From the NCBI GenBank assembly GCA_963751345.1, contig CAVVUS010000001.1:15235-79234 (forward strand): a DNA stretch of 64,000 bases, in the 5' to 3' direction. The position numbers and the translations under genes were made by a program. The notes beneath the pieces were generated by a model, which was not told where the DNA came from, searched no databases, and saw only the letters and a list, made by a program, of their open reading frames with translations. Source of the DNA: an uncultured Chloroflexia bacterium (GTDB taxonomy: Bacteria; Chloroflexota; Anaerolineae; B4-G1; SLSP01). Of this stretch, positions 1,401-26,131 are shown one piece after another; within the stretch, counting starts at the first letter, position 1; each line of letters starts with the position of its first letter.

Positions 1401-4211
1401 CTACACCTCCGCCAGAATGCGGCGGATCGCTGCTGCGGGGTCCTGACCCAGATGGAACCGGACGACACGACGACCGGCATCGGCGAGTGCCTGATAGTCA
1501 CCCAGGGCCTGAGCACGCACGAGGACGCCAAAACTCATCGAAGCCTCGGAGTCCCCCGCCCGGTCGGGAATCTCCGCGTCCCGGACGGGATCAGCCGTGA
1601 ACTGGATGAAGAGGCCGTTGCCGCCATCACCTTTATGGAGCTGGCCGGTGGAGTGAAGGTAACGAGGGCCATAGCCCGACGTCGTCGCAACCTGATAGCG
1701 GTCGCGAATCCAGCGGCGCAGGGACTGCAGCGCCTCCGTCGTGGCCTCGGTAGGTTGAACGTAAGCCTGCAAGGCCACGTAGTCGCCCGCGCGGACCTGA
1801 GCCAGGAAGCTCACAAGTGCCTGGCCCCCGACCTCGGTCGACGCGCCTTCGGGGAGCGCACCACTCTCGCGATAGGTTGCGATCATCTGACGTGCCAACA
1901 CTTTGGCCGCCTCTACGTTAGGTTGATTGAAGGGCTGGATGCCCAGGCTATGTCCCGCCACCGCCACAGCCATCTCCCAGAGAAAGATCTGCTCGCCAAT
2001 GTCATACAGGTCACGCAGGTGAAGCGTGACCACAGGGTGCCCGGTTTCAGCCAGTGCGCCCAACGCCGCGTCGGCAGTGGTATCGCCGTCGAGTCGGAGG
2101 TGCACAAAAAGCCGGTCGTTACCGTAGACCTCCGGCGCCCCCAATGGCTCCCCAACCACAGGGAGGATGCCCGTGCCGGCTTTGCCGGTGCTCTCGGCAA
2201 CGAGTTGCTCCACCCAATCGCCGAAATTGCCGCACGGAGGAGAGACGACCAGCGTCAGTTTGTCCCGTCCGGCCTTGGCCAGTTCGCCCAGGATGACGCC
2301 CAGTTCCGCAGCAACCGTGTCGCCGGCGGTCTGCGAAGCCTCCCCTTCCCATCCCCCGCCCGTCGAGGAAGGGGCTGGGTCTTGGCCATCATCCCTTATA
2401 TCCATAGGGGTAAAGGGGAAGCCCAGGGCGCGCTCGAGCAGAAGCCCGACGTCGACACCCAGCAGCGCTGCAGGGACGAGGCCGAAGTGGGATAGCGCTG
2501 AGTACCGCCCGCCAATGGTAGGGATGTTCTCGAAGACGGCACGGAATCCAAGCTCCCTGCCCAGTGCTGCCAGCGATGTGCCGGGATCGGTGATGGCGGC
2601 AAAGTGCGCTCCCGCGTCCGCGCGGCCCACCGCATCGCTCGTCGCGTTGTAGAAATACTTGAGGAATGACAGGGTCTCGGCCGTCGTGCCCGACTTGCTG
2701 GAGGCGATGAACAAGGTCCTCGCAAGGTCGAGCGCGTCGGCATAGGCCAGCACGGCACCGGGATCGGTGCTGTCGAGGACGTCCAGTCGCGGATAGCCCT
2801 CGCGACCGCCGAAGACGGTGCTGAAGACGTCGGGGGCCAGGCTGGAGCCCCCCATACCCAGCAACACCACGCGCGTGTAGCCGGCATCCCTGACAGCGTC
2901 GACGAAGTCCGCTATGGGTTCCAGGTGTCTCAGCATCACCGCGGGTGAGGTGAGCCATCCAAGGCGATTGGAAATCTCCGTCGGCTCCGGCTGCCACACG
3001 AAGTAGTCAAGTTCCCAGATACGGTCGACGATCTCTTCCTCGACCAACCGATCGAGGGCAGTATCTACCGCTGCCTGTTCCTCGCCAAGGCGGGCCTCGA
3101 AACGCGGCAGCCCGAGCCTGCGGCACTTCGTGCGCACGCTTTGCAGAAGTACTTCGAAGGGCTTCGCGAACTTGTCAACGCCCTCGTCCAGGAGCGCGTC
3201 GGTCACGCGATCCAAATCGATGCCCAGATCAGCCAGGCGTCTGAGTTGGGCCTGTGCGGTCTCCAGATCGGCCTCAAGGGTGTCAGCCACCGTGCCATGA
3301 TCGAGCACGGCCTTCAGCGTCTCGGGGGGCAGCGTGTTGACGGTATGGGGGCCGATCAGGGCGTCGGGATAGAGCGTGTCGGGATACGCCGGGTTCTTGG
3401 TGCTGGTGCTGGCCCACAGGGGACGCTGAAGGCTGGCCCCCTTGGCGGCAAGATGCTCCCAGCGCTCACCACTGAACGCCTGCTTGAAGCGCTGATAGGC
3501 CATCTTGGCGTTGGCGATGCCGATCGTGCCCTTGAGTTCGGCGGCCTCCGGTGTCCCAAATCATCCAACATGCCGTCGACCATCACGTCGACGCGGCTGA
3601 CAAAGAAGGATGCCACGGATGCTATGCCCGTCAGATCCCCATCCTGTCGCGGCTCGACGCTCCAGACCCGCCATATAGGCCTCCGCGACCGCGTCGTACT
3701 GCTCCAGTGAGAACATCAGCGTCACGTTGACGTTGATTCCCTCGCCGATGAGCGTCTCGATGGCAGGAATGCCCTCCGGTGTCGCGGGCACCTTGATCAG
3801 AACGTTGGGTCGACCGACAGCTCCCCAAAGATGCCGAGCTTGCGCGATCGTGCCGGCGGTGTCATAGGCCAAATCGGGGCTCACCTCGAGGCTGACGAAA
3901 CCGTCCTTACCCTCCGTAGCCTCGTACACGATCCGCAGCGTATCGGCTGCCATTTGGATGTCGCGCAGGGCTAGCGCCTCATACGTATCGGCCGCAACCA
4001 CGCCCAGATCACACGTCTCGGCGAGCTGCTGATCGTAGTCGTCGCTGCCGGCGATCGCCTTCTCGAAGATTGCGGGGTTCGACGTAACACCCCGCACGCC
4101 CTGGTTAACCGCGGCAGCCAGGCCACCGCCGAGAATGTATGAGCGCCGGATGTAGTCGAGCCAAATCGACTGGCCGGAATCCGCCAACTGGCCAAGTATT
4201 GTACTTTCCAC
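1401..4211 (-). CDS. tal-pgi: bifunctional transaldolase / glucose-6-phosphate isomerase (frameshifted near 3540-3640)
   Basis: Transaldolase motifs [38 protein letters not shown]; PGI motifs [52 protein letters not shown]. Merges ORFs 3561-4211 and 1401-3503. Confidence 0.93.
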
Positions 4212-9492: not shown

Positions 9493-10650
9493 ATGGAAGC
9501 GATAGACTTACGCGAAGACCTAGACGGCTTCGATGATACAACTGAAGCATACGATGAGGAAATCGAGGAGGAGGAGGAAGAGCAAGAGAATGACCTCCTT
9601 TCTTTGGATGAGATCTTTGGAGTAGACTCCGATGAGGAGGGACTCGAAGGAGATGCACTGGACGACTTTCACCTCTTTTTCCAGGATGAGGAAGCCGAAG
9701 AGGAAGATCTCGATGAAGACGAACCCATCGTGGACATCAGTAACATCGCAGCCAATGACTCACTGAGTCTCTATCTCCAGGAAATGGGGCGGGTGCCGTT
9801 ATTGTCCCGTGATGAGGAGATTGAGTTAGCCATATATATGGAGCAAGGTCGAGAGGCCCAGCAGAAGCTGGCCACTGACCGACACGATCCTGCAAATATC
9901 GATGAGTTGGAGGATGAGATTCGGCTCGGGCAGGAAGCCCGACGGCACTTGATCGAGGCCAACACGCGCCTGGTTGTCAGCGTCGCCAAGAGGTATCGTG
10001 GCTACGGTCTGCAGTTCCTGGATCTGATCCAGGCCGGCAACGTGGGGCTCATTAAAGCCGTGGACAAGTTCGACTATCATCGCGGCAACCGTTTCAGCAC
10101 CTATGCGACGTGGTGGATCCGCCAGGCTGTGACGCGGTCGCTGACCCAGCACGGACGCGGTATCCGTATCCCCATCCACATGAGCGATTACCTGCGAAAG
10201 CTCGACAAGATCTCGCAGAACATGGAGCAGAAGCTGGGTAGGCGTCCGACGACCGAGGAACTGGCCGAGGAAGTCAACGAGGACCCTATCAAGCTCCGCA
10301 AGATGCTGCGCCAGTCACAGACGCCGGTCTCGCTGAACAAGGAAGTGGGCGATGAGGACACGTCAGAACTGGAGCAGTTTATCGAGGACGAGTCGACCCC
10401 CACACCGGATGAATCGGCCGAGGAACGGATGTTGCACGAGCAACTGGAGCAGTTGCTGACGACGCTAGAGCCGCGCGAGGCGTGGATCCTGCGGATGCGG
10501 TTCGGCCTGCACGGAAGTAGGACACACACCCTGAAGGAACTCGGGCAGAAGCTGGGAATTTCGAAGGAACGTGTTCGCCAGATTCAGGGACAGGCATTGA
10601 GGAAACTTCGACACCCCTACCATCGACGGCAGCTTCAGGACTTCCGCTAG
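9493..10650 (+). CDS. RpoD-like sigma-70 factor (group 1/2 paralogue)
   Basis: Acidic N-terminus, DSLSLYLQEMGRVPLL, ANTRLVVSVAKRY, DLIQAGNVGL, FSTYATWWIRQAV, KERVRQIQ..ALRKLR. Confidence 0.93.
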   Translation: MEAIDLREDLDGFDDTTEAYDEEIEEEEEEQENDLLSLDEIFGVDSDEEGLEGDALDDFHLFFQDEEAEEEDLDEDEPIVDISNIAANDSLSLYLQEMGRVPLLSRDEEIELAIYMEQGREAQQKLATDRHDPANIDELEDEIRLGQEARRHLIEANTRLVVSVAKRYRGYGLQFLDLIQAGNVGLIKAVDKFDYHRGNRFSTYATWWIRQAVTRSLTQHGRGIRIPIHMSDYLRKLDKISQNMEQKLGRRPTTEELAEEVNEDPIKLRKMLRQSQTPVSLNKEVGDEDTSELEQFIEDESTPTPDESAEERMLHEQLEQLLTTLEPREAWILRMRFGLHGSRTHTLKELGQKLGISKERVRQIQGQALRKLRHPYHRRQLQDFR

Positions 10651-10765: not shown

Positions 10766-11519
10766 CTACCCCTCCAACTTGCAGATCGCGCCCGCGCGCT
10801 TGACCCGCAGTGCGACCGTCTCCAGGACGCGGAAGCAGTGGTCAAGTCCGTCGTTGCCTGTCATAGGCTGTCACGAGATCCTGCCCCACCACGAGGTCGA
10901 AATTATAGGGTGCCAGTGAGAGGACCATGCCCTGTCCATCGCCCAACAGTTGAGAGCGATAGATGCCGCCCTCGGCAACATCCTTGATAAGGTCTCCGAC
11001 CAGCCGCCCCATCCCCTGTGAGACACGCTGGGTACTCACGTAGAGATCGGGGCTCAGGATGACCGCATAGGGACCATAGAAATCATCAGAGAAGAGTGCC
11101 TCGGTCGCCGCCACGACGCTCGCCAGGGGCCCTTCCGCCTCCCCCCAGTTTCCAAGGGACACGCTCTTGTCGGCTATATCCCACAGACCGCCAAGAACCA
11201 TCTTGTCCTCAGCCTTGGCGCAGGCCATCGCTGCCTGTGCAGCGGGGCCGAGCTCCAGCGGCAGACCCAACCTGCGGCTCGCCTCGATGTCGCGCCACTT
11301 GAGTACGAATTCCTCACTGATTACTTCGATCGAGATCTGATCTCGATTCTCTCCGGACCCGACAGGAATGACCTCCATCCCCGCCCCGAATGGGCCGACA
11401 AGGTCGAGCAGCCGCCGCCCGACCAAGAACTGGCGTGCGGCACTCACAACGACCTGGTCGATCGCCTCCCACTCCGAATCCGACAATGGAACAGCACTCC
11501 GCATGAGATAGTCAGCCAT
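10766..11519 (-). CDS. family 1 encapsulin shell protein (Linocin M18 type), one-base frameshift near 10860
   Basis: MADYLMR..PLSDSEWEAID, GRRLLDLVGPFGAG, F.LKWRDIE, AAMACAKAED, GPYAVILSP.LY, DLVVGQDLVTAY. After the frameshift it continues GNDGLDHCFRVLETVALRVKRAGAICKLEG* (stop 10766-10768); about 250 aa when repaired. Confidence 0.93.
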
Positions 11520-11535
11520 TGGTATCCTCCTGATT

Positions 11536-12456
11536 CTACTTCAAACTACCTACGGTTAGTTCATCCTTGGATGACGCGGCCTCGGGTTCCGCCTCTTCAG
11601 CCGTCTCCATCAATTCCTTCAGCACCGTGGTCAGCAGCCCGTCCCGCGTGACGATGTTGTCGATCTCTACCTTGAGAGATTCGTGCTTCGCGATCTCCGG
11701 GTCCTGGCTGAAGGCAATCAAGCGCTCCTGTGCCTCCTCGGTCAAGGCGAGGTCCGAGGTCAGCGCTGACATGGGCGAACTGCTGAGATCCACACCCGGG
11801 TAGTCAAAGGGGAGCTCCTCGCCCGCATCGGCGACCTCCTCGGCGAAATGCGACATATTCTTCATATGCCGCATAGCCGTCAGCTCGAGCTCACTGCCTA
11901 CAGGACAGACCGGCTCACCCAGCACAAACGCCTGGCGCAGGTGCTGAAGCACGAGTTTGTAGTGAGCATCTACCTCCGTGTGGAACCGGACGATCATGTC
12001 GGGTGAGAAACTGGGCTCATCGAAGAGCAACGGCTCCTCGCCTTGGGGCCCCAGCTTCTCCAACCACATCTCGAACCTGCGCTGATGGGTGACGGACTCC
12101 CAACCGAGCTGGTTGAGCACACGCTTGAGCTCACGCTCCTCAACCTGATCCGCCTGCTCGGCGTACATCTTCACCAGACCCGCCTCCCACTCGATGTAGG
12201 ATCGCAGAAGAGAGGCATTTGAGGCCCCGTCATAGGGATAGATGCCCTTCTCCATAAGCGGCTCTTCGCCCTGTTCCCCGATCTCGTCCCCAAGCCAATC
12301 CATGTGCCACATCTCTTCGCGGGCCGTAGAGAGCAGCATCTCACCGAACGGCGTGGTCTCGCCCACCTGATAGGCGTGAATCAGGTAGCGAAGAATCGAG
12401 GCGTGCTCATCCGCCAGATCCTTGTTAAGCATCTCGATAAACGCTTGTCGATCCAT
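11536..12456 (-). CDS. tandem ferritin-like (bacterioferritin-like) encapsulin cargo protein
   Basis: Domain 1 has E17, Y24, E48-M49-x-H51, E91, Y98, H124. Domain 2 is a degenerate repeat. An acidic linker leads to C-terminal DELTVGSLK; 16 bp upstream of the shell gene. Confidence 0.88.
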   Translation of the reverse strand: MDRQAFIEMLNKDLADEHASILRYLIHAYQVGETTPFGEMLLSTAREEMWHMDWLGDEIGEQGEEPLMEKGIYPYDGASNASLLRSYIEWEAGLVKMYAEQADQVEERELKRVLNQLGWESVTHQRRFEMWLEKLGPQGEEPLLFDEPSFSPDMIVRFHTEVDAHYKLVLQHLRQAFVLGEPVCPVGSELELTAMRHMKNMSHFAEEVADAGEELPFDYPGVDLSSSPMSALTSDLALTEEAQERLIAFSQDPEIAKHESLKVEIDNIVTRDGLLTTVLKELMETAEEAEPEAASSKDELTVGSLK

Positions 12457-12684
12457 ACAATACCCTCCTCAGATTACGTTAGAGCGACCAAGTATGTGTT
12501 TCCGCCACGGAATCCGCAGCTATTATATACCCAGCAACCGCCCCGCAAAGCAAGCGCGTCGGGCTGTACATATGGCGGGCCGGATGTACCATTGGGTCCT
12601 GAGAACTATGCACACCCGCGTCTTTCCCTTCGACGCCGGCCGTGCTGCTCACGACCAACTGCCCGCAGAAAGGATTCGCCAACA

Positions 12685-14121
12685 ATGATGGAGCAACTCT
12701 ACCGAGAGCGCCTGACCCGCTATCTGACCGCGATGCGCAACGAAAAACCGGATATGGTCCCCATCCGGCCGTTCGTCGCCGAGTTCACCGCCAAGTACGC
12801 CGGCTTTACGTGTCAGGATGTCACCCACGACTACAACAAAGCGTTTATCGCCGCACGCAAGTGCGCCGCCGACTTCGACTGGGATGCGGTCGTCTCGAAT
12901 ATGGTCTACGTGTGGACCGGGCTGACGCAGGCCATCGGTCTGACCTACTATGGCGTCCCCGGCCTTGACGTCCCGCCCGACACCGGATTCCAGTACAGGG
13001 AGCCGAGTGAAGAGAATGCCTTCATGAAGGCGGACGAGTATGATGAGTTGATCGACGACCCTACCGCCTTCCTCTACAACACGTGGCTCCCGCGGGTCTC
13101 GCAGGACATCCGCCCGATGGGCGCCCCGACATCGTATCGCAACAACCTGGCCCTCGTGAAAGGTGCTACGGCGATGGCGAATTACTTCGCCGCGTACGGC
13201 CCGCACGTCGACCTGCTGCGGACCGAGAGCGGCACCGTCTCCGCCATCGCGGGCATCTTCAAGGCGCCCTTTGACATCCTGGCCGACAAGCTCCGCGGCT
13301 ACATCGGGCTGACGATGGACATGGTCGAGCAGCCGGACAAGGTCCTCAAGGCCTGCGAGGCGTTGATGCCCCACCTCTACAACACGGCCTTGACGTCGTC
13401 CGATCCCAACCACCAGGTGCCCATCGGGTACTGGATGCACCGCGGCGGCATCCCGTTCGTCTCGAGAGGACAGTTCGAGTCACACTATTGGCCTACGGTG
13501 AGGCCCATCATCGAGGAGCTGTGGCGAAACGGGCACCAAACGCTCTTCTACGCTGAGGGAGACTGGGGTCACCACCTCAACAGCTTCACCGAACTTCCCG
13601 ACCACAGCATTGTCTATCACGTGGACCGGGGCGATATCTTCAAGACGCAGGAAGTACTGGGGCACAAGTTCTGCCTGAGCGGCGGCATTCCCAACTTTGA
13701 GCTCGCCTACGGCACGCCCAAGCAGGTGCGCGACATTGTCAAGAAGGTCATCGACGGCGTAGCACAGGATGGCGGCTACATCATGGATGCCAGCGCGATC
13801 ATGCAGAACGACACGTCCATCGAGAACCTCAAGGCGATGACGGATGCCACGCGGGAGTACGGCGTCTACTCCGGGGTCGCCTCCCGGCTTGCCGATCTCG
13901 ACGAGCAGGTCGCGCCACCACAGGACGCCGTCTTCGGCGAGAGCTATGGCATGCCCGATACCTCGGACCTCAAGGTCCCCGCCGGACAGTGCATCCCGTG
14001 GGCTGAGAAGCGCAAGGAGATCCCCGAGATCTCCGGGGACGTGGACCTCGCCCAGCGCATCTGGGAGGAGGTCGATGCCCCGGCCAACAGCTTTATCTGG
14101 CAGGTCCTGCTCTCGTTCTGA
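12685..14121 (+). CDS. uroporphyrinogen decarboxylase-fold protein (MtaA/CmuA-like family)
   Basis: PDMVP, MKADEYDELIDDP, PFDILADKLRG, FYAEG.W, CLSGG, DGGYIM, ENLKAM; probable start ATG 12685. Confidence 0.8.
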   Translation: MMEQLYRERLTRYLTAMRNEKPDMVPIRPFVAEFTAKYAGFTCQDVTHDYNKAFIAARKCAADFDWDAVVSNMVYVWTGLTQAIGLTYYGVPGLDVPPDTGFQYREPSEENAFMKADEYDELIDDPTAFLYNTWLPRVSQDIRPMGAPTSYRNNLALVKGATAMANYFAAYGPHVDLLRTESGTVSAIAGIFKAPFDILADKLRGYIGLTMDMVEQPDKVLKACEALMPHLYNTALTSSDPNHQVPIGYWMHRGGIPFVSRGQFESHYWPTVRPIIEELWRNGHQTLFYAEGDWGHHLNSFTELPDHSIVYHVDRGDIFKTQEVLGHKFCLSGGIPNFELAYGTPKQVRDIVKKVIDGVAQDGGYIMDASAIMQNDTSIENLKAMTDATREYGVYSGVASRLADLDEQVAPPQDAVFGESYGMPDTSDLKVPAGQCIPWAEKRKEIPEISGDVDLAQRIWEEVDAPANSFIWQVLLSF

Positions 14122-24345: not shown

Positions 24346-24349
<4 letters not shown>

Positions 24350-26131
24350 AGATATCTCCGATCCAGGTCATCCATCTGGTCCCGCAGGTCGGTGGCAATG
24401 GCATCGAACTCCTCGATCTGATCGTTCGAGATCGTCTGCTTCATACGCACGATGCGGTTGACCACGGGAAGATTGCGAATGACCACGACCGGGCATCCCT
24501 TCGACACCAAGCGAGACGCACGGCCGTGATACGCAAGGATTAACCCGAGCATCCGCGACTGCTTGGCGATGCCGGCGTACGTATCGATGTCATCCGTCGC
24601 GTCCTGCTGCAGGAACCCCTCACGCAGCAGACGCGCCGTCTCCAGGATCAGCCGCTGATCGTCCGGCAGCGCATCCGCGCCGATGAGCTGAACGATCTGC
24701 TGCAGATGGTCCTCACGCTGGAGGATCTCCAGCGCGTGAGTACGCTGCTCGGACCAGTCCGGGAGCCCGTGGTCCTCCCACCACCCCTCGACCTCGTCCA
24801 CGTACTGGCTGTAGCTGTTGAGCCAGTTCACAGAGGGGAAGTGTCGCTCCGAGGCCAGATCCTTGTCCAGTGCCCAGAAGCAGCGCACAAAGCGCCGCGT
24901 GTGCTGGGTCACCGGCTCGGAGAAATCACCACCGGGCGGGCTCACCGCGCCGATGAGGCTGACCGATCCCTCCTGACCGGCCAGGTCGTGACCCGGCCGG
25001 CGCGCTCATAGAACTCCGCCAGACGCGCCGGAAGATAGGCAGGGAACCCTTCCTCAGCGGGCATCTCCTCCAACCGGCCCGAGATCTCTCGCAGCGCCTC
25101 CGCCCAGCGCGAGGTCGAGTCGGCCATCATCGCCACGTCGTAGCCCATGTCGCGGTAATACTCCGCCAACGTGACGCCGGTATAGATGCTGGCCTCGCGC
25201 GCGGCCACCGGCATGTTCGACGTGTTGGCGATCAGGATCGTGCGCTCCATCAGCGGATGCCCCGACTTCGGGTCGTGAAGTTCGGGGAACTGCCGGAGGA
25301 CATCGGCCATCTCGTTGCCGCGCTCGCCACAGCCGACGTAGATGATGACGTCCGCGTTGCTCCACTTGGCCACCTGGTGCTGAAGTACCGTCTTGCCCGC
25401 GCCGAATCCGCCGGGGATCGCCGCGGTCCCCCCATGGCGAGCGGGAAAAAGGTGTCCAACACCCGCTGACCGGTGACCAGCACCTGGTTGGGCCGCAGAC
25501 GCTGCAGGTGAGGCCGGGGGCGTCGCACAGGCCACTGCTGCAACATGGTGATGCTCTGCTCACCCTTCGCCGTCGTAACGATCCTGGCGATTTCGTCATT
25601 GAGCGTATACTCCCCTTCCTCGGCAATCCACGACAGATAACCCGAGATACCCGGTGGCACCATCACTTTGTGGGTGACCAACGGCGTTTCGGGGACGGTC
25701 CCAAGAATCGCCCCTTCGGAAAGATTTGCGTTTTGCTCCACGGTCGGCGTGAAGTGCCATTCCTGCTTGCGATAGAGGGGCGTGAGCCGGATGCCGCGCC
25801 CGATGAAGGGGCCGCTACGCTGCTCCATCACCGTCAGGGGGCGCTGAATACCGTCAAAGACGCCCGACATGAGACCGGGACCGAGCTCAACTGAGAGCGG
25901 GGCACCCGTGCCATAGACAGCAGCGCCCGGGCGCAGCCCCGAGGTCTCCTCGTAGACCTGAATGGTGAGATTTGTGTGTTCAAGCCCGATCACCTCACCC
26001 ACGAGATGCTCCGGCCCAACCTGCACGACCTCGTACATTCCGGTCTTCTCGGATCCCTTAGCCCGAACCACCGGGCCGTTGACCCAAGTGAGATCTCCAA
26101 TCCGTGGTAGATCTACTTCAGTCCCGATCAT
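24346..26131 (-). CDS. ntpA: V/A-type ATP synthase subunit A (two frameshifts, near 25430 and 24985)
   Basis: Walker [52 protein letters not shown]. Confidence 0.95.

Follow-up and report, generated by a model that had tools for sequence, protein, structure and literature searches.

DFLP-type ferritin-like cargo and a shell gene with a probable assembly frameshift in the family 1 encapsulin operon of an Anaerolineae genome

In the window analysed here, a stretch of 64,000 nucleotides from an uncultured Chloroflexota bacterium, a two-gene operon was identified whose 306-aa product belongs to the already described DFLP family and would be the core cargo of a family 1 encapsulin iron compartment, a reading to which a probability of about 0.85 is assigned. 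The second gene, which encodes the shell, is shifted out of frame by one extra base 31 codons before its end. In our judgement this insertion most likely arose as an error in the assembly consensus; it would otherwise be a very recent lesion. The earlier note on this DNA had described a 306-aa cargo placed, with a 16-bp gap, ahead of a family 1 encapsulin in a Chloroflexota lineage; the open reading frames, the spacer and the encap_f1 profile confirm this arrangement, and the Chloroflexota origin agrees with relatives recorded under the titles "Anaerolineae bacterium", "Anaerolineales" and "Chloroflexia". Both genes lie on the minus strand, where 16 nt separate the end of the cargo gene from the ATG of the shell gene at 11519 (Table 1). 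Among the profile searches that the earlier note had suggested, those with Linocin_M18 (PF04454) and Ferritin both matched (E 1.9e-44 for the shell; E 1.2e-5 for the cargo, residues 7-133), and that with Rubrerythrin gave weak cargo matches (E 2.9e-4) below the cut-off.

Table 1. Features of the encapsulin operon, with positions in the window
Feature	Positions	Strand	Basis
Shell gene, last 31 codons and stop, one base out of frame	10766..10861	minus	Translation
Inserted base (coding-strand G) that displaces the shell frame	10862	minus	Alignment to G002, X1 contigs and intact relatives
Shell gene (family 1 encapsulin), first 219 codons in frame	10863..11519	minus	Linocin_M18, encap_f1, codon comparison with G002
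Intergenic spacer of 16 nt, including the Shine-Dalgarno GGAGG of the shell gene (11526-11530)	11520..11535	minus	Sequence
Cargo gene, 306-aa DFLP ("Bfr-type" encapsulin cargo), stop included	11536..12456	minus	ORF, Pfam Ferritin, best solved relative 9viw_A, two-bundle model
Targeting peptide LTVGSLK, residues 300-306	11539..11559	minus	Invariant positions in homologues, genome scan
Acidic disordered linker, about residues 290-297	11566..11589	minus	pLDDT, alignment A2
C-terminal four-helix bundle, residues 152-289	11590..12003	minus	hhalign mapping, family alignment, VIA-align
N-terminal four-helix bundle, residues 1-140	12037..12456	minus	Alignment to 9viw, VIA-align
Shine-Dalgarno GGAGG of the cargo gene, 7 nt ahead of its ATG	12464..12468	minus	Sequence, conserved upstream
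Candidate -10 box TATAAT	12522..12527	minus	Aligned in several relatives (inferred)

The AlphaFold2 model of the cargo (mean pLDDT 87.2, pTM 0.83) contains two four-helix bundles, with helices at residues 3-31, 36-61, 80-104 and 108-140 in the first and 152-179, 187-210, 228-250 and 259-289 in the second, and the two halves are homologous by hhalign (probability 86%, E 4.9e-6, 65 columns), in agreement with the two ferritin-like repeats that had been proposed for this protein. With VIA-align, the N-terminal bundle is closest in fold to the Dps-like protein 8w1d (Z 19.1, rmsd 1.9 Å, 136 residues), and the C-terminal bundle matches 9qq4, a mini-bacterioferritin (Z 17.6), and 2qqy (Z 17.4). Residues 291-306, with pLDDT below 50, form a disordered tail, in which the length of the linker varies among relatives (indels of up to about 40 columns in alignment A2), and the protein ends in AEEAEPEAASSKDELTVGSLK before its stop codon. 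Within the targeting peptide, T301, G303 and L305 are invariant in all 34 aligned homologues. When the complete 5.4-Mb genome was scanned in six frames, the cargo was the only ORF of at least 60 aa to carry the motif [LFWIM][TGS][VI]G[ST]L in its last 25 residues, so that the targeting peptide is not a chance occurrence. The acidic linker and LTVGSLK tail noted earlier are thus borne out, and the accompanying equation of LTVGSL(R/K) with the loading peptide of Myxococcus xanthus EncB, EncC and EncD agrees with the motif given for these proteins in a recent bioRxiv preprint (10.1101/2025.09.13.676036), which also describes the motif class [LF]-x-[VI]-G-x-[LI].

The best solved relative of the cargo is 9viw_A (TmDFLP), with E 9.6e-17 for the single sequence and 9e-27 for the family profile, followed by a single-domain mini-bacterioferritin at E 3.9e-6, so that the cargo is nearer to the DFLPs than to ferritins of one domain. 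The preprint names the DFLP family and describes a crystal structure (9VIW), together with dimerisation, the binding of heme and ferroxidase activity. According to the same text, EEHEEH occurs in 79.6% of DFLP N-terminal domains, both methionines are 100% conserved, and the C-terminal domain deviates to motifs such as ESHEEH and KKQVEQ. The motif statistics of the family retrieved here resemble these figures. A profile search of 1.84 billion representatives gave 290 matches at E <= 0.001; among the best 150 of these, 81 are at least 260 aa long, and in these 81 the N-terminal motif is EEHEEH in 64, the C-terminal motif is EEHEEH in 31, ESHEEH in 9 and KKQVEQ in 1, M49 is present in all and M198 in 79, and a strict targeting-peptide-like tail is found in 48. 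Other assignments were rejected: membership of EncFtn/Flp (TIGR04535, ferrit_encaps; 20.5 bits against a cut-off of 125), of the EncB family (NF058679, EncB_fam; 23.3 bits against 90) and of classical bacterioferritin, which is a single bundle of about 160 aa, in contrast to the two fused bundles in 306 aa of the cargo.

The likeness to characterised DFLPs extends to general architecture and genomic setting. As in TmDFLP of Thermocrinis minervae and CaDFLP of Caldanaerovirga acetigignens, two ferritin domains are contained in about 300 aa and connected by a linker near residues 140-152, conservation is higher at the N-terminal than at the C-terminal site, the chain ends in a [LF]TVGSL-type peptide, and the cargo is the sole ferritin-domain protein of its genome (a single PF00210 match); as for CaDFLP, the encapsulin gene lies directly downstream (all from the preprint for the DFLPs). 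However, the sequence similarity to TmDFLP is modest (E 1e-16), and the host, an Anaerolineae MAG of mesophile type, differs from the thermophiles that carry TmDFLP and CaDFLP. A search by HMMER found no solved relative for the C-terminal half of the family profile: the match to 9viw is confined to profile positions 2-137, which align to either of its domains with similar scores (49.3 and 51.4 bits), so that a one-to-one orthology of the domains with those of TmDFLP would be putative. Foldseek against a PDB copy to 2026-04-08, which may not include 9viw, listed weak single-domain ferritin matches only (best E 1.1e-2), with 9viw unlisted.

This type of operon has been recorded before, and the view of the earlier note that the cargo architecture was uncharacterised does not stand, given that the DFLP class has been named, 9VIW has been solved and bacterioferritin cargos were catalogued in 2021. 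"Flp+Flp" or "Double Flp fusion proteins" had been mentioned by Giessen & Silver 2016 (10.1101/085266), and Andreas & Giessen 2021 (PMC8346489) catalogued two-bundle "bacterioferritin" cargos, Chloroflexi included, whose operon type and phylum equal those of the window; these are catalogue entries only, assumed to form cages. Their supplementary table includes the Anaerolineales encapsulin E4H27_01200 with the cargo type Bacterioferritin. The protein E4H27_01205 (P0040), beside it by locus tag, is 60% identical to the window cargo over 100% of its length and, from the adjacent locus tags, would be the curated cargo accession of that entry. The operon is accordingly a further encapsulin-DFLP case in a phylum where the type is already catalogued, and in this respect adds little that is new. 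In the literature searched, no experiment on this cargo or on any Chloroflexota DFLP was found, nor any demonstrated loading of a DFLP into a shell.

A survey of the neighbourhoods of homologues, also proposed in the earlier note, kept 80 loci. All 21 from Chloroflexota have the targeting peptide and a shell gene directly downstream, and none of the 59 others (Desulfobacterota, Syntrophales, Nitrospirota and others) has the peptide or a shell gene within 2.5 kb. The cargo was found in 15 of 21 genomes of the same genus. In the genome of the window, Linocin_M18 has a single match, the shell of this operon.

The shell stretch, 10766-11519, measures 754 nt (3 x 251 + 1) and is not one open frame: the ORF that starts at its ATG ends at a stop at 10842, giving 225 aa. 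Compared with the closest relative, G002, the assembly has an extra base at 10862 (TATGACAGG vs TAC-ACAGG), and the conserved C-terminus of the shell, 31 residues reading TGNDGLDHCFRVLETVALRVKRAGAICKLEG up to the stop, lies out of frame behind it. The earlier note had missed the frameshift; its identification as a family 1 encapsulin holds. The Linocin_M18 match reaches 152 bits against a cut-off of 24.3 (positions 2-240 of 253), the NCBIfam equivalog encap_f1 (NF041155) scores 167.6 bits against a cut-off of 100 on the window fragment (positions 1-236 of 261) and 187.4 bits on the full-length G002 orthologue (positions 1-261 of 261), and among shells of solved structure 9i8e comes first (E 1.3e-42), with M. 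xanthus EncA also close (E 5e-40). The shell, of about 250 aa against 287 in EncA, is shorter around residues 58-84. On this basis the protein is assigned to family 1, with icosahedral assembly and cargo loading predicted.

If the break were real, the only encapsulin gene of the genome would have become a pseudogene in recent time, and the cargo would now act as a ferroxidase dimer outside any shell, in the manner of the untagged DFLPs of Desulfobacterota. The extra base is present in the assembly as given, the site is not in a homopolymer, and the untagged, shell-less DFLPs at 59 of the 80 loci make it plausible that the cargo works without a shell. However, this is unlikely in view of several lines of evidence. 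The shells of all 21 distinct relatives are intact (248-283 aa), one base, at 10860 or 10862, is missing from both metagenome contigs of run X1 that span the site (this run being at most a related population, with 0.41 of sampled words and a depth of about 3; the site is outside the coverage of runs X2, X3 and X5), the 32 shifted-frame codons after the break comprise 22 identical, 9 synonymous and 1 non-synonymous relative to G002, and the targeting peptide is unchanged. In addition, the A subunit of the V/A-ATPase in the same window, an essential protein, is split in three frames (25250-26131, 24942-25535 and 24346-24945), on which consecutive parts of its Pfam profile fall, and its two breaks sit at single-base differences from G002 (24985 and 25431), which indicates assembly error. 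Programmed +1 ribosomal frameshifting, which would yield a full-length shell from the interrupted gene, could account for the conservation of the downstream 31 codons in the +1 frame; yet it is scarcely credible, as the interruption occurs in none of the 21 relatives, the TAT GAC AGG context, as we read it, gives the P-site tRNA no +1 re-pairing, and further single-base breaks exist in the window. The reading as an assembly error is based on the intact relatives, the X1 contigs, the mostly synonymous codon changes after the break and the split ATPase subunit, and also on the 31 net frame-shifting indel clusters by which, over about 36 kb, the window assembly differs from G002; the spanning of ORFs was unreliable as a test of which assembly is broken at these clusters, both being "open" in 18 of 31, an outcome ascribed to long spurious frames in high-GC DNA. 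For annotation, caution is advisable, as conserved genes of this assembly are interrupted by single-base indels.

With regard to metal binding, residue alignment to 9viw places a putative di-iron site in the N-terminal bundle at E17, E48, H51, E91, (E120)S121 and H124, that is, EEHESH. Five of the six canonical ligands are kept (E17, E48, H51, E91 and H124). Position five of the motif is taken by Ser121, directly after Glu120, whereas TmDFLP has its second bridging glutamate, E122, there, and the spacing from E120 to H124 is i+4 instead of i+3. The resulting EEHESH, in contrast to the EEHEEH reported for DFLPs, is found in 79 of 80 relatives. This bundle probably has an active di-iron site. 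The corresponding C-terminal positions are degenerate (HHNTDL: H165, H197, N200, T239, D272 and L275, against ESHEEH in TmDFLP); positions 165, 197, 198 and 200 were fixed by aligning the two halves of the protein with hhalign, and 239, 272 and 275 were placed by the register of the family alignment with the KKQVEQ of the untagged sister clade, where 28 of 59 members have this C-terminal motif, more than have any other. To judge from these residues, the di-iron site of the C-terminal bundle is lost and Met198 kept. The heme-ligand candidates M49 and M198 occur without exception in the 34 aligned homologues and in the 80 relatives and match the bis-methionine heme site of bacterioferritin and of TmDFLP (M48 and M198 in the latter), on which ground heme binding is putative.

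It is conceivable, if doubtful, that the Anaerolineae DFLPs constitute a functionally asymmetric sub-lineage, in which the N-terminal site is altered, the C-terminal site is replaced by a set of His, Thr and Leu residues, and the iron chemistry is unlike that of TmDFLP. In this reading the C-terminal set conserved in the lineage comprises H172, H197, mostly H200, T239 and L275, and T239 and L275 are fixed in all 21 Chloroflexota relatives. Were it correct, the set could serve iron transit, a mononuclear metal site or heme control. The combination of a variant N-terminal and a dead C-terminal site could help to define the ligands that a DFLP needs.

Two further views concern the assembly and the chemistry of the cargo. 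Bacterioferritin such as E. coli Bfr (1BFR) resembles it in having a four-helix bundle with di-iron ligands of the E/E-x-x-H kind and, between two bundles, a bis-Met heme site, and Andreas & Giessen 2021 supposed that such cargos form cages, a shell within a shell, with which the bacterioferritin-like folds seen here are in line. This is very improbable: according to the preprint, SEC-MALS and SAXS show CaDFLP and TmDFLP as monomers and dimers, and neither these methods nor AlphaFold3 modelling gave a cage. The preprint also reports that the two TmDFLP bundles pack like two subunits of a bacterioferritin dimer. For the window cargo, a symmetric homodimer is predicted, with a score of 0.77 (median of three runs) against 0.00 for the best control, at least 59% agreement of contacts between runs and a partner pLDDT of at least 87; in the calibration of the tool, whose counts apply here only roughly because a separately made alignment was supplied, 20 of 30 solved same-chain pairs and 1 of 23 proteins solved as single chains attained this mark, and the prediction may reflect likeness to the solved complex 9VIW. 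Unlike bacterioferritin, the cargo has its bundles fused in one chain, one site degenerate and an encapsulin-targeting tail, and no 24-mer is expected. It is also possible, although unlikely, that the main role is detoxification of peroxide or oxygen, the variant N-terminal site being a rubrerythrin- or Dps-like peroxidase center inside the shell. The weak Rubrerythrin matches, the altered second bridging ligand, the Dps-like top fold match and the anaerobe-type names of the lineages of the relatives are in line with it. However, the closest characterised relative is a ferroxidase according to the preprint, no peroxidase-specific feature was found in the cargo, and such a role is compatible with iron storage, the two not being exclusive.

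A GGAGG-like motif is kept before the cargo start in 25 aligned upstream regions (duplicates of the same genomes included), in which no common palindrome of a Fur- or PerR-type operator was found. A scan of the operon for consensus sigma-70 promoters and terminators gave nothing above shuffled sequences and did not call the TATAAT listed in Table 1. The neighbours are a response regulator, an HPP membrane protein, a DksA/TraR zinc finger protein, a sigma-70 factor, a URO-D family protein and a sulfatase, with no iron-related gene found among them.

Taken as an encapsulin-DFLP compartment, the system most likely serves iron oxidation and storage or protection against oxidative stress, by analogy with characterised relatives. 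The earlier note had come to a similar role, which the tagged ferritin-like cargo beside an encapsulin upholds; its premise of an uncharacterised architecture has to be given up, the DFLPs being known. By comparison with TmDFLP and CaDFLP and with M. xanthus EncA and its cargos EncB, EncC and EncD, the cargo would form a homodimer, and its tail peptide would bind to the inside of the shell as this assembles. The M. xanthus system, for which iron storage is likewise proposed, has the same targeting motif, LTVGSL, while EncB and EncC are single-domain proteins, unlike the two-domain cargo here. The N-terminal site would oxidise Fe(II) with O2 or H2O2, as the ferroxidase activity of characterised relatives suggests, the ferric mineral would be held inside the shell and not in a ferritin cage, and heme may pass electrons for iron release.

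Any DFLP member could serve for a shell-loading test, and the Chloroflexota loci with tag and shell, set against the 59 other loci with neither, offer a clean natural comparison for the recruitment of a ferritin-like enzyme into a compartment. Given that the cargo is the sole PF00210 match and the shell the sole encapsulin of the genome, the encapsulin-DFLP system may be the main iron store of this organism and its guard against Fenton chemistry.

The encapsulin operon proposed in the earlier note is real, being made up of a cargo ORF, a short intergenic gap and a shell gene that matches both Linocin_M18 (E 1.9e-44) and the NCBIfam family 1 encapsulin shell equivalog (167.6 bits; cut-off 100). 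That note's description of the cargo likewise holds, because the ORF is intact in the sequence, Pfam Ferritin matches residues 7-133 (E 1.2e-5) alongside the Pfam and NCBIfam shell matches, and, when all six frames of the complete 5.4-Mb genome were scanned, the cargo alone had a targeting-peptide-like motif at its ORF tail. The genome contains a single PF00210 match (the cargo) and a single encapsulin (the shell).

Features of the encapsulin locus and of the split ATPase gene, in window coordinates
Feature	Position	Strand	Remarks
Sigma-70 family factor	9493-10650	+	Regions 1.2, 2, 3 and 4; very acidic N-terminal ~85 aa
Shell stretch	10766-11519	-	754 nt, not divisible by three
Conserved shell C-terminus	10766-10861	-	TGNDGLDHCFRVLETVALRVKRAGAICKLEG and stop, displaced one base from the upstream frame
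Stop of shell ORF	10842	-	225 aa, profile positions 1-236 of 261
Extra base relative to G002	10862
Shell start ATG	11519	-	16 nt past the cargo ORF, preceded by GGAGG
Cargo ORF	11536-12456	-	306 aa, C-terminal end ...AEEAEPEAASSKDELTVGSLK
URO-D-family protein	12679-14121	+	480 aa, divergent from the operon
V/A-type ATPase catalytic A subunit	24346-26131	-	Three ORFs in different frames
ATPase A subunit pieces	25250-26131; 24942-25535; 24346-24945	-	Successive Pfam profile parts across the three pieces
Single-base differences from G002 at the ATPase breaks	24985; 25431

An AlphaFold2 model of the cargo, based on 34 homologues (mean pLDDT 87.2, pTM 0.83), shows two four-helix bundles, one spanning residues 3-140 and the other 152-289, after which residues 291-306 are disordered. 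The N-terminal bundle matches the Dps-like protein 8w1d (Z 19.1, rmsd 1.9 Å, 136 residues) and the C-terminal one the mini-bacterioferritin 9qq4 (Z 17.6) and 2qqy (Z 17.4), and the two halves are homologous to each other (hhalign probability 86%, E 4.9e-6, 65 columns). Of the solved structures, 9viw_A, a two-domain 'bacterioferritin' of 306 residues, comes out closest by sequence (E 9.6e-17, falling to 9e-27 when the family profile is used), and no single-domain ferritin approaches these values, the next solved relative lying at E 3.9e-6; the cargo also falls below the curated cut-offs for EncB and EncFtn. A symmetric homodimer was predicted with a score of 0.77 against 0.00 for the best control (contacts shared between runs at least 59%, partner pLDDT at least 87), a mark that, in the calibration of the tool, 20 of 30 solved one-chain pairs attained, as did 1 of 23 single chains. 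These counts apply only approximately here because a custom alignment was supplied; moreover, a comparable complex is already solved.

The cargo architecture, regarded in the earlier note as uncharacterised, is thus that of a known and recently characterised class. In a recent preprint (bioRxiv 10.1101/2025.09.13.676036), double ferritin-like proteins (DFLPs) are defined from 157 sequences, 9VIW is the DFLP of Thermocrinis minervae (TmDFLP), which has ferroxidase activity, and 2QQY is the closest structurally characterised DFLP homologue. DFLPs are described there as forming dimers and not cages and as binding heme sub-stoichiometrically. The di-iron site of the N-terminal domain reads EEHEEH, the site in the C-terminal domain varies (EEHEEH 57.3%, ESHEEH 13.3%, KKQVEQ 8.9%), and two methionines are 100% conserved; C-terminal targeting peptides are reported in 56 of them, and encapsulation is argued from motifs and models. 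Apart from this preprint, a literature search found no paper that treats proteins under the name DFLP together with encapsulins. In addition, the supplementary table of Andreas & Giessen 2021 (PMC8346489) assigns E4H27_01200, an encapsulin from Anaerolineales, to the cargo type Bacterioferritin, a class that also includes Caldanaerovirga acetigignens. The protein E4H27_01205, which from its locus tag would adjoin E4H27_01200, is 60% identical to the cargo over its whole length in the homologue search.

When 1.84 billion cluster representatives were searched with the profile, 290 proteins passed E <= 0.001, of which 155 remained at 1e-10 and 42 at 1e-30. Among the best 150 of these 290, 81 representatives had at least 260 aa; N-terminal EEHEEH was present in 64 of the 81, C-terminal EEHEEH in 31 and ESHEEH in 9, M49 in all 81, M198 in 79 and the strict targeting-peptide pattern in 48. 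These figures resemble those of the preprint, so the family recovered with the window's profile is that of the DFLPs. The cargo occurs in 15/21 other genomes of the genus, 2/8 of a second family and 0/8 of a third. In GTDB, with one genome per species, 261 stretches encode a relative, and in the best 80 of these, covered by the neighborhood survey suggested earlier, all 21 Chloroflexota loci combine the peptide with a shell gene as the next gene downstream. Neither occurs within 2.5 kb in the remaining 59, which come from Desulfobacterota, Syntrophales, Nitrospirota and others (36-43% identity). The untagged double ferritin-like proteins of these 59 make up a large clade; they are ~285-300 aa long, with a KKQVEQ-like C-terminal motif, a conserved tail (...QQEEYQGAELEDW) and no encapsulin within 2.5 kb.

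Residue-by-residue alignment to 9viw placed the N-terminal ligands of the cargo at E17, E48, H51, E91 and H124, whereas Ser121 occupies the position of E122 in TmDFLP, with Glu120 one residue earlier. The resulting EEHESH pattern was found in 79 of the 80 relatives, in both clades, and in 6 of the 81 family representatives (best 150 of 290). The C-terminal ligand positions read HHNTDL in the cargo and vary across Chloroflexota (EHHTEL 6, HHHTNL 4, QHHTNL 4, QHNTNL 3, others), with T239 and L275 fixed; these residues preclude a C-terminal di-iron site. The untagged sister clade has KKQVEQ in 28 of 59, and the N-terminal domain is better conserved toward it (50% identity) than the C-terminal domain (26%). 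Two family representatives, P0121 and P0128, have N-terminal EEHESH yet retain canonical C-terminal EEHEEH and a targeting peptide, and may stand midway between the canonical DFLPs and the degenerate form seen in Chloroflexota.

The shell coordinates in the earlier note, beginning at 10766, do not correspond to a single open frame. Several lines of evidence make an assembly indel the probable cause of the break (about 80%). Relatives have intact shells (21/21 distinct sequences, 248-283 aa), and in X1, a sequencing run representing at most a related population (0.41 of sampled words) and the only one of four compared that spans the site, both spanning contigs are one base shorter, at 10860 or 10862. 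Compared with G002, the closest relative (cargo 92% identical), the 32 codons downstream of the break show 9 synonymous and 1 non-synonymous changes in the shifted frame, so selection has maintained this frame up to the very recent past; the corresponding counts for the 219 upstream codons are 65 and 24. The ATPase A subunit is split where single bases differ from G002, which suggests that this assembly contains single-base indel errors; compared with G002 it shows 31 net frame-shifting indel clusters over ~36 kb. On this evidence, a genuine recent lesion is less likely, and programmed frameshifting that would yield a full-length shell is very unlikely.

The G002 assembly also seems to carry frame-breaking indels: its URO-D-family gene (locus L002, about 2185-3917) appears as two ORFs of 361 and 311 aa that overlap, with a single-base difference from the window at window position 13031. 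The window orthologue matches URO-D in Pfam over its C-terminal two thirds only (E 1.7e-17), has no NCBIfam match, and is kept beside the operon in several relatives. The sigma-70 family gene converges on the shell gene, an arrangement kept in relatives of the genus.

Architecture, conserved ligands and methionines, peptide and gene arrangement are established for this operon, and analogy with the M. xanthus system, TmDFLP and bacterioferritin suggests a mechanism. The cargo dimer would be held by its tail peptide on the inside of the shell, Fe(II) would be oxidised at the N-terminal site, the shell would retain the mineral, and inter-domain heme may provide electron transfer for iron release. 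The earlier suggestion of an iron-storage or oxidative-stress compartment is a reasonable functional reading of a real operon, its novelty of architecture aside. As the sole PF00210 match and sole encapsulin in the genome, the system may be the organism's main iron store. The cargo operon represents a further case of a known, recently characterised class, with a shell frameshift that is likely artefactual.
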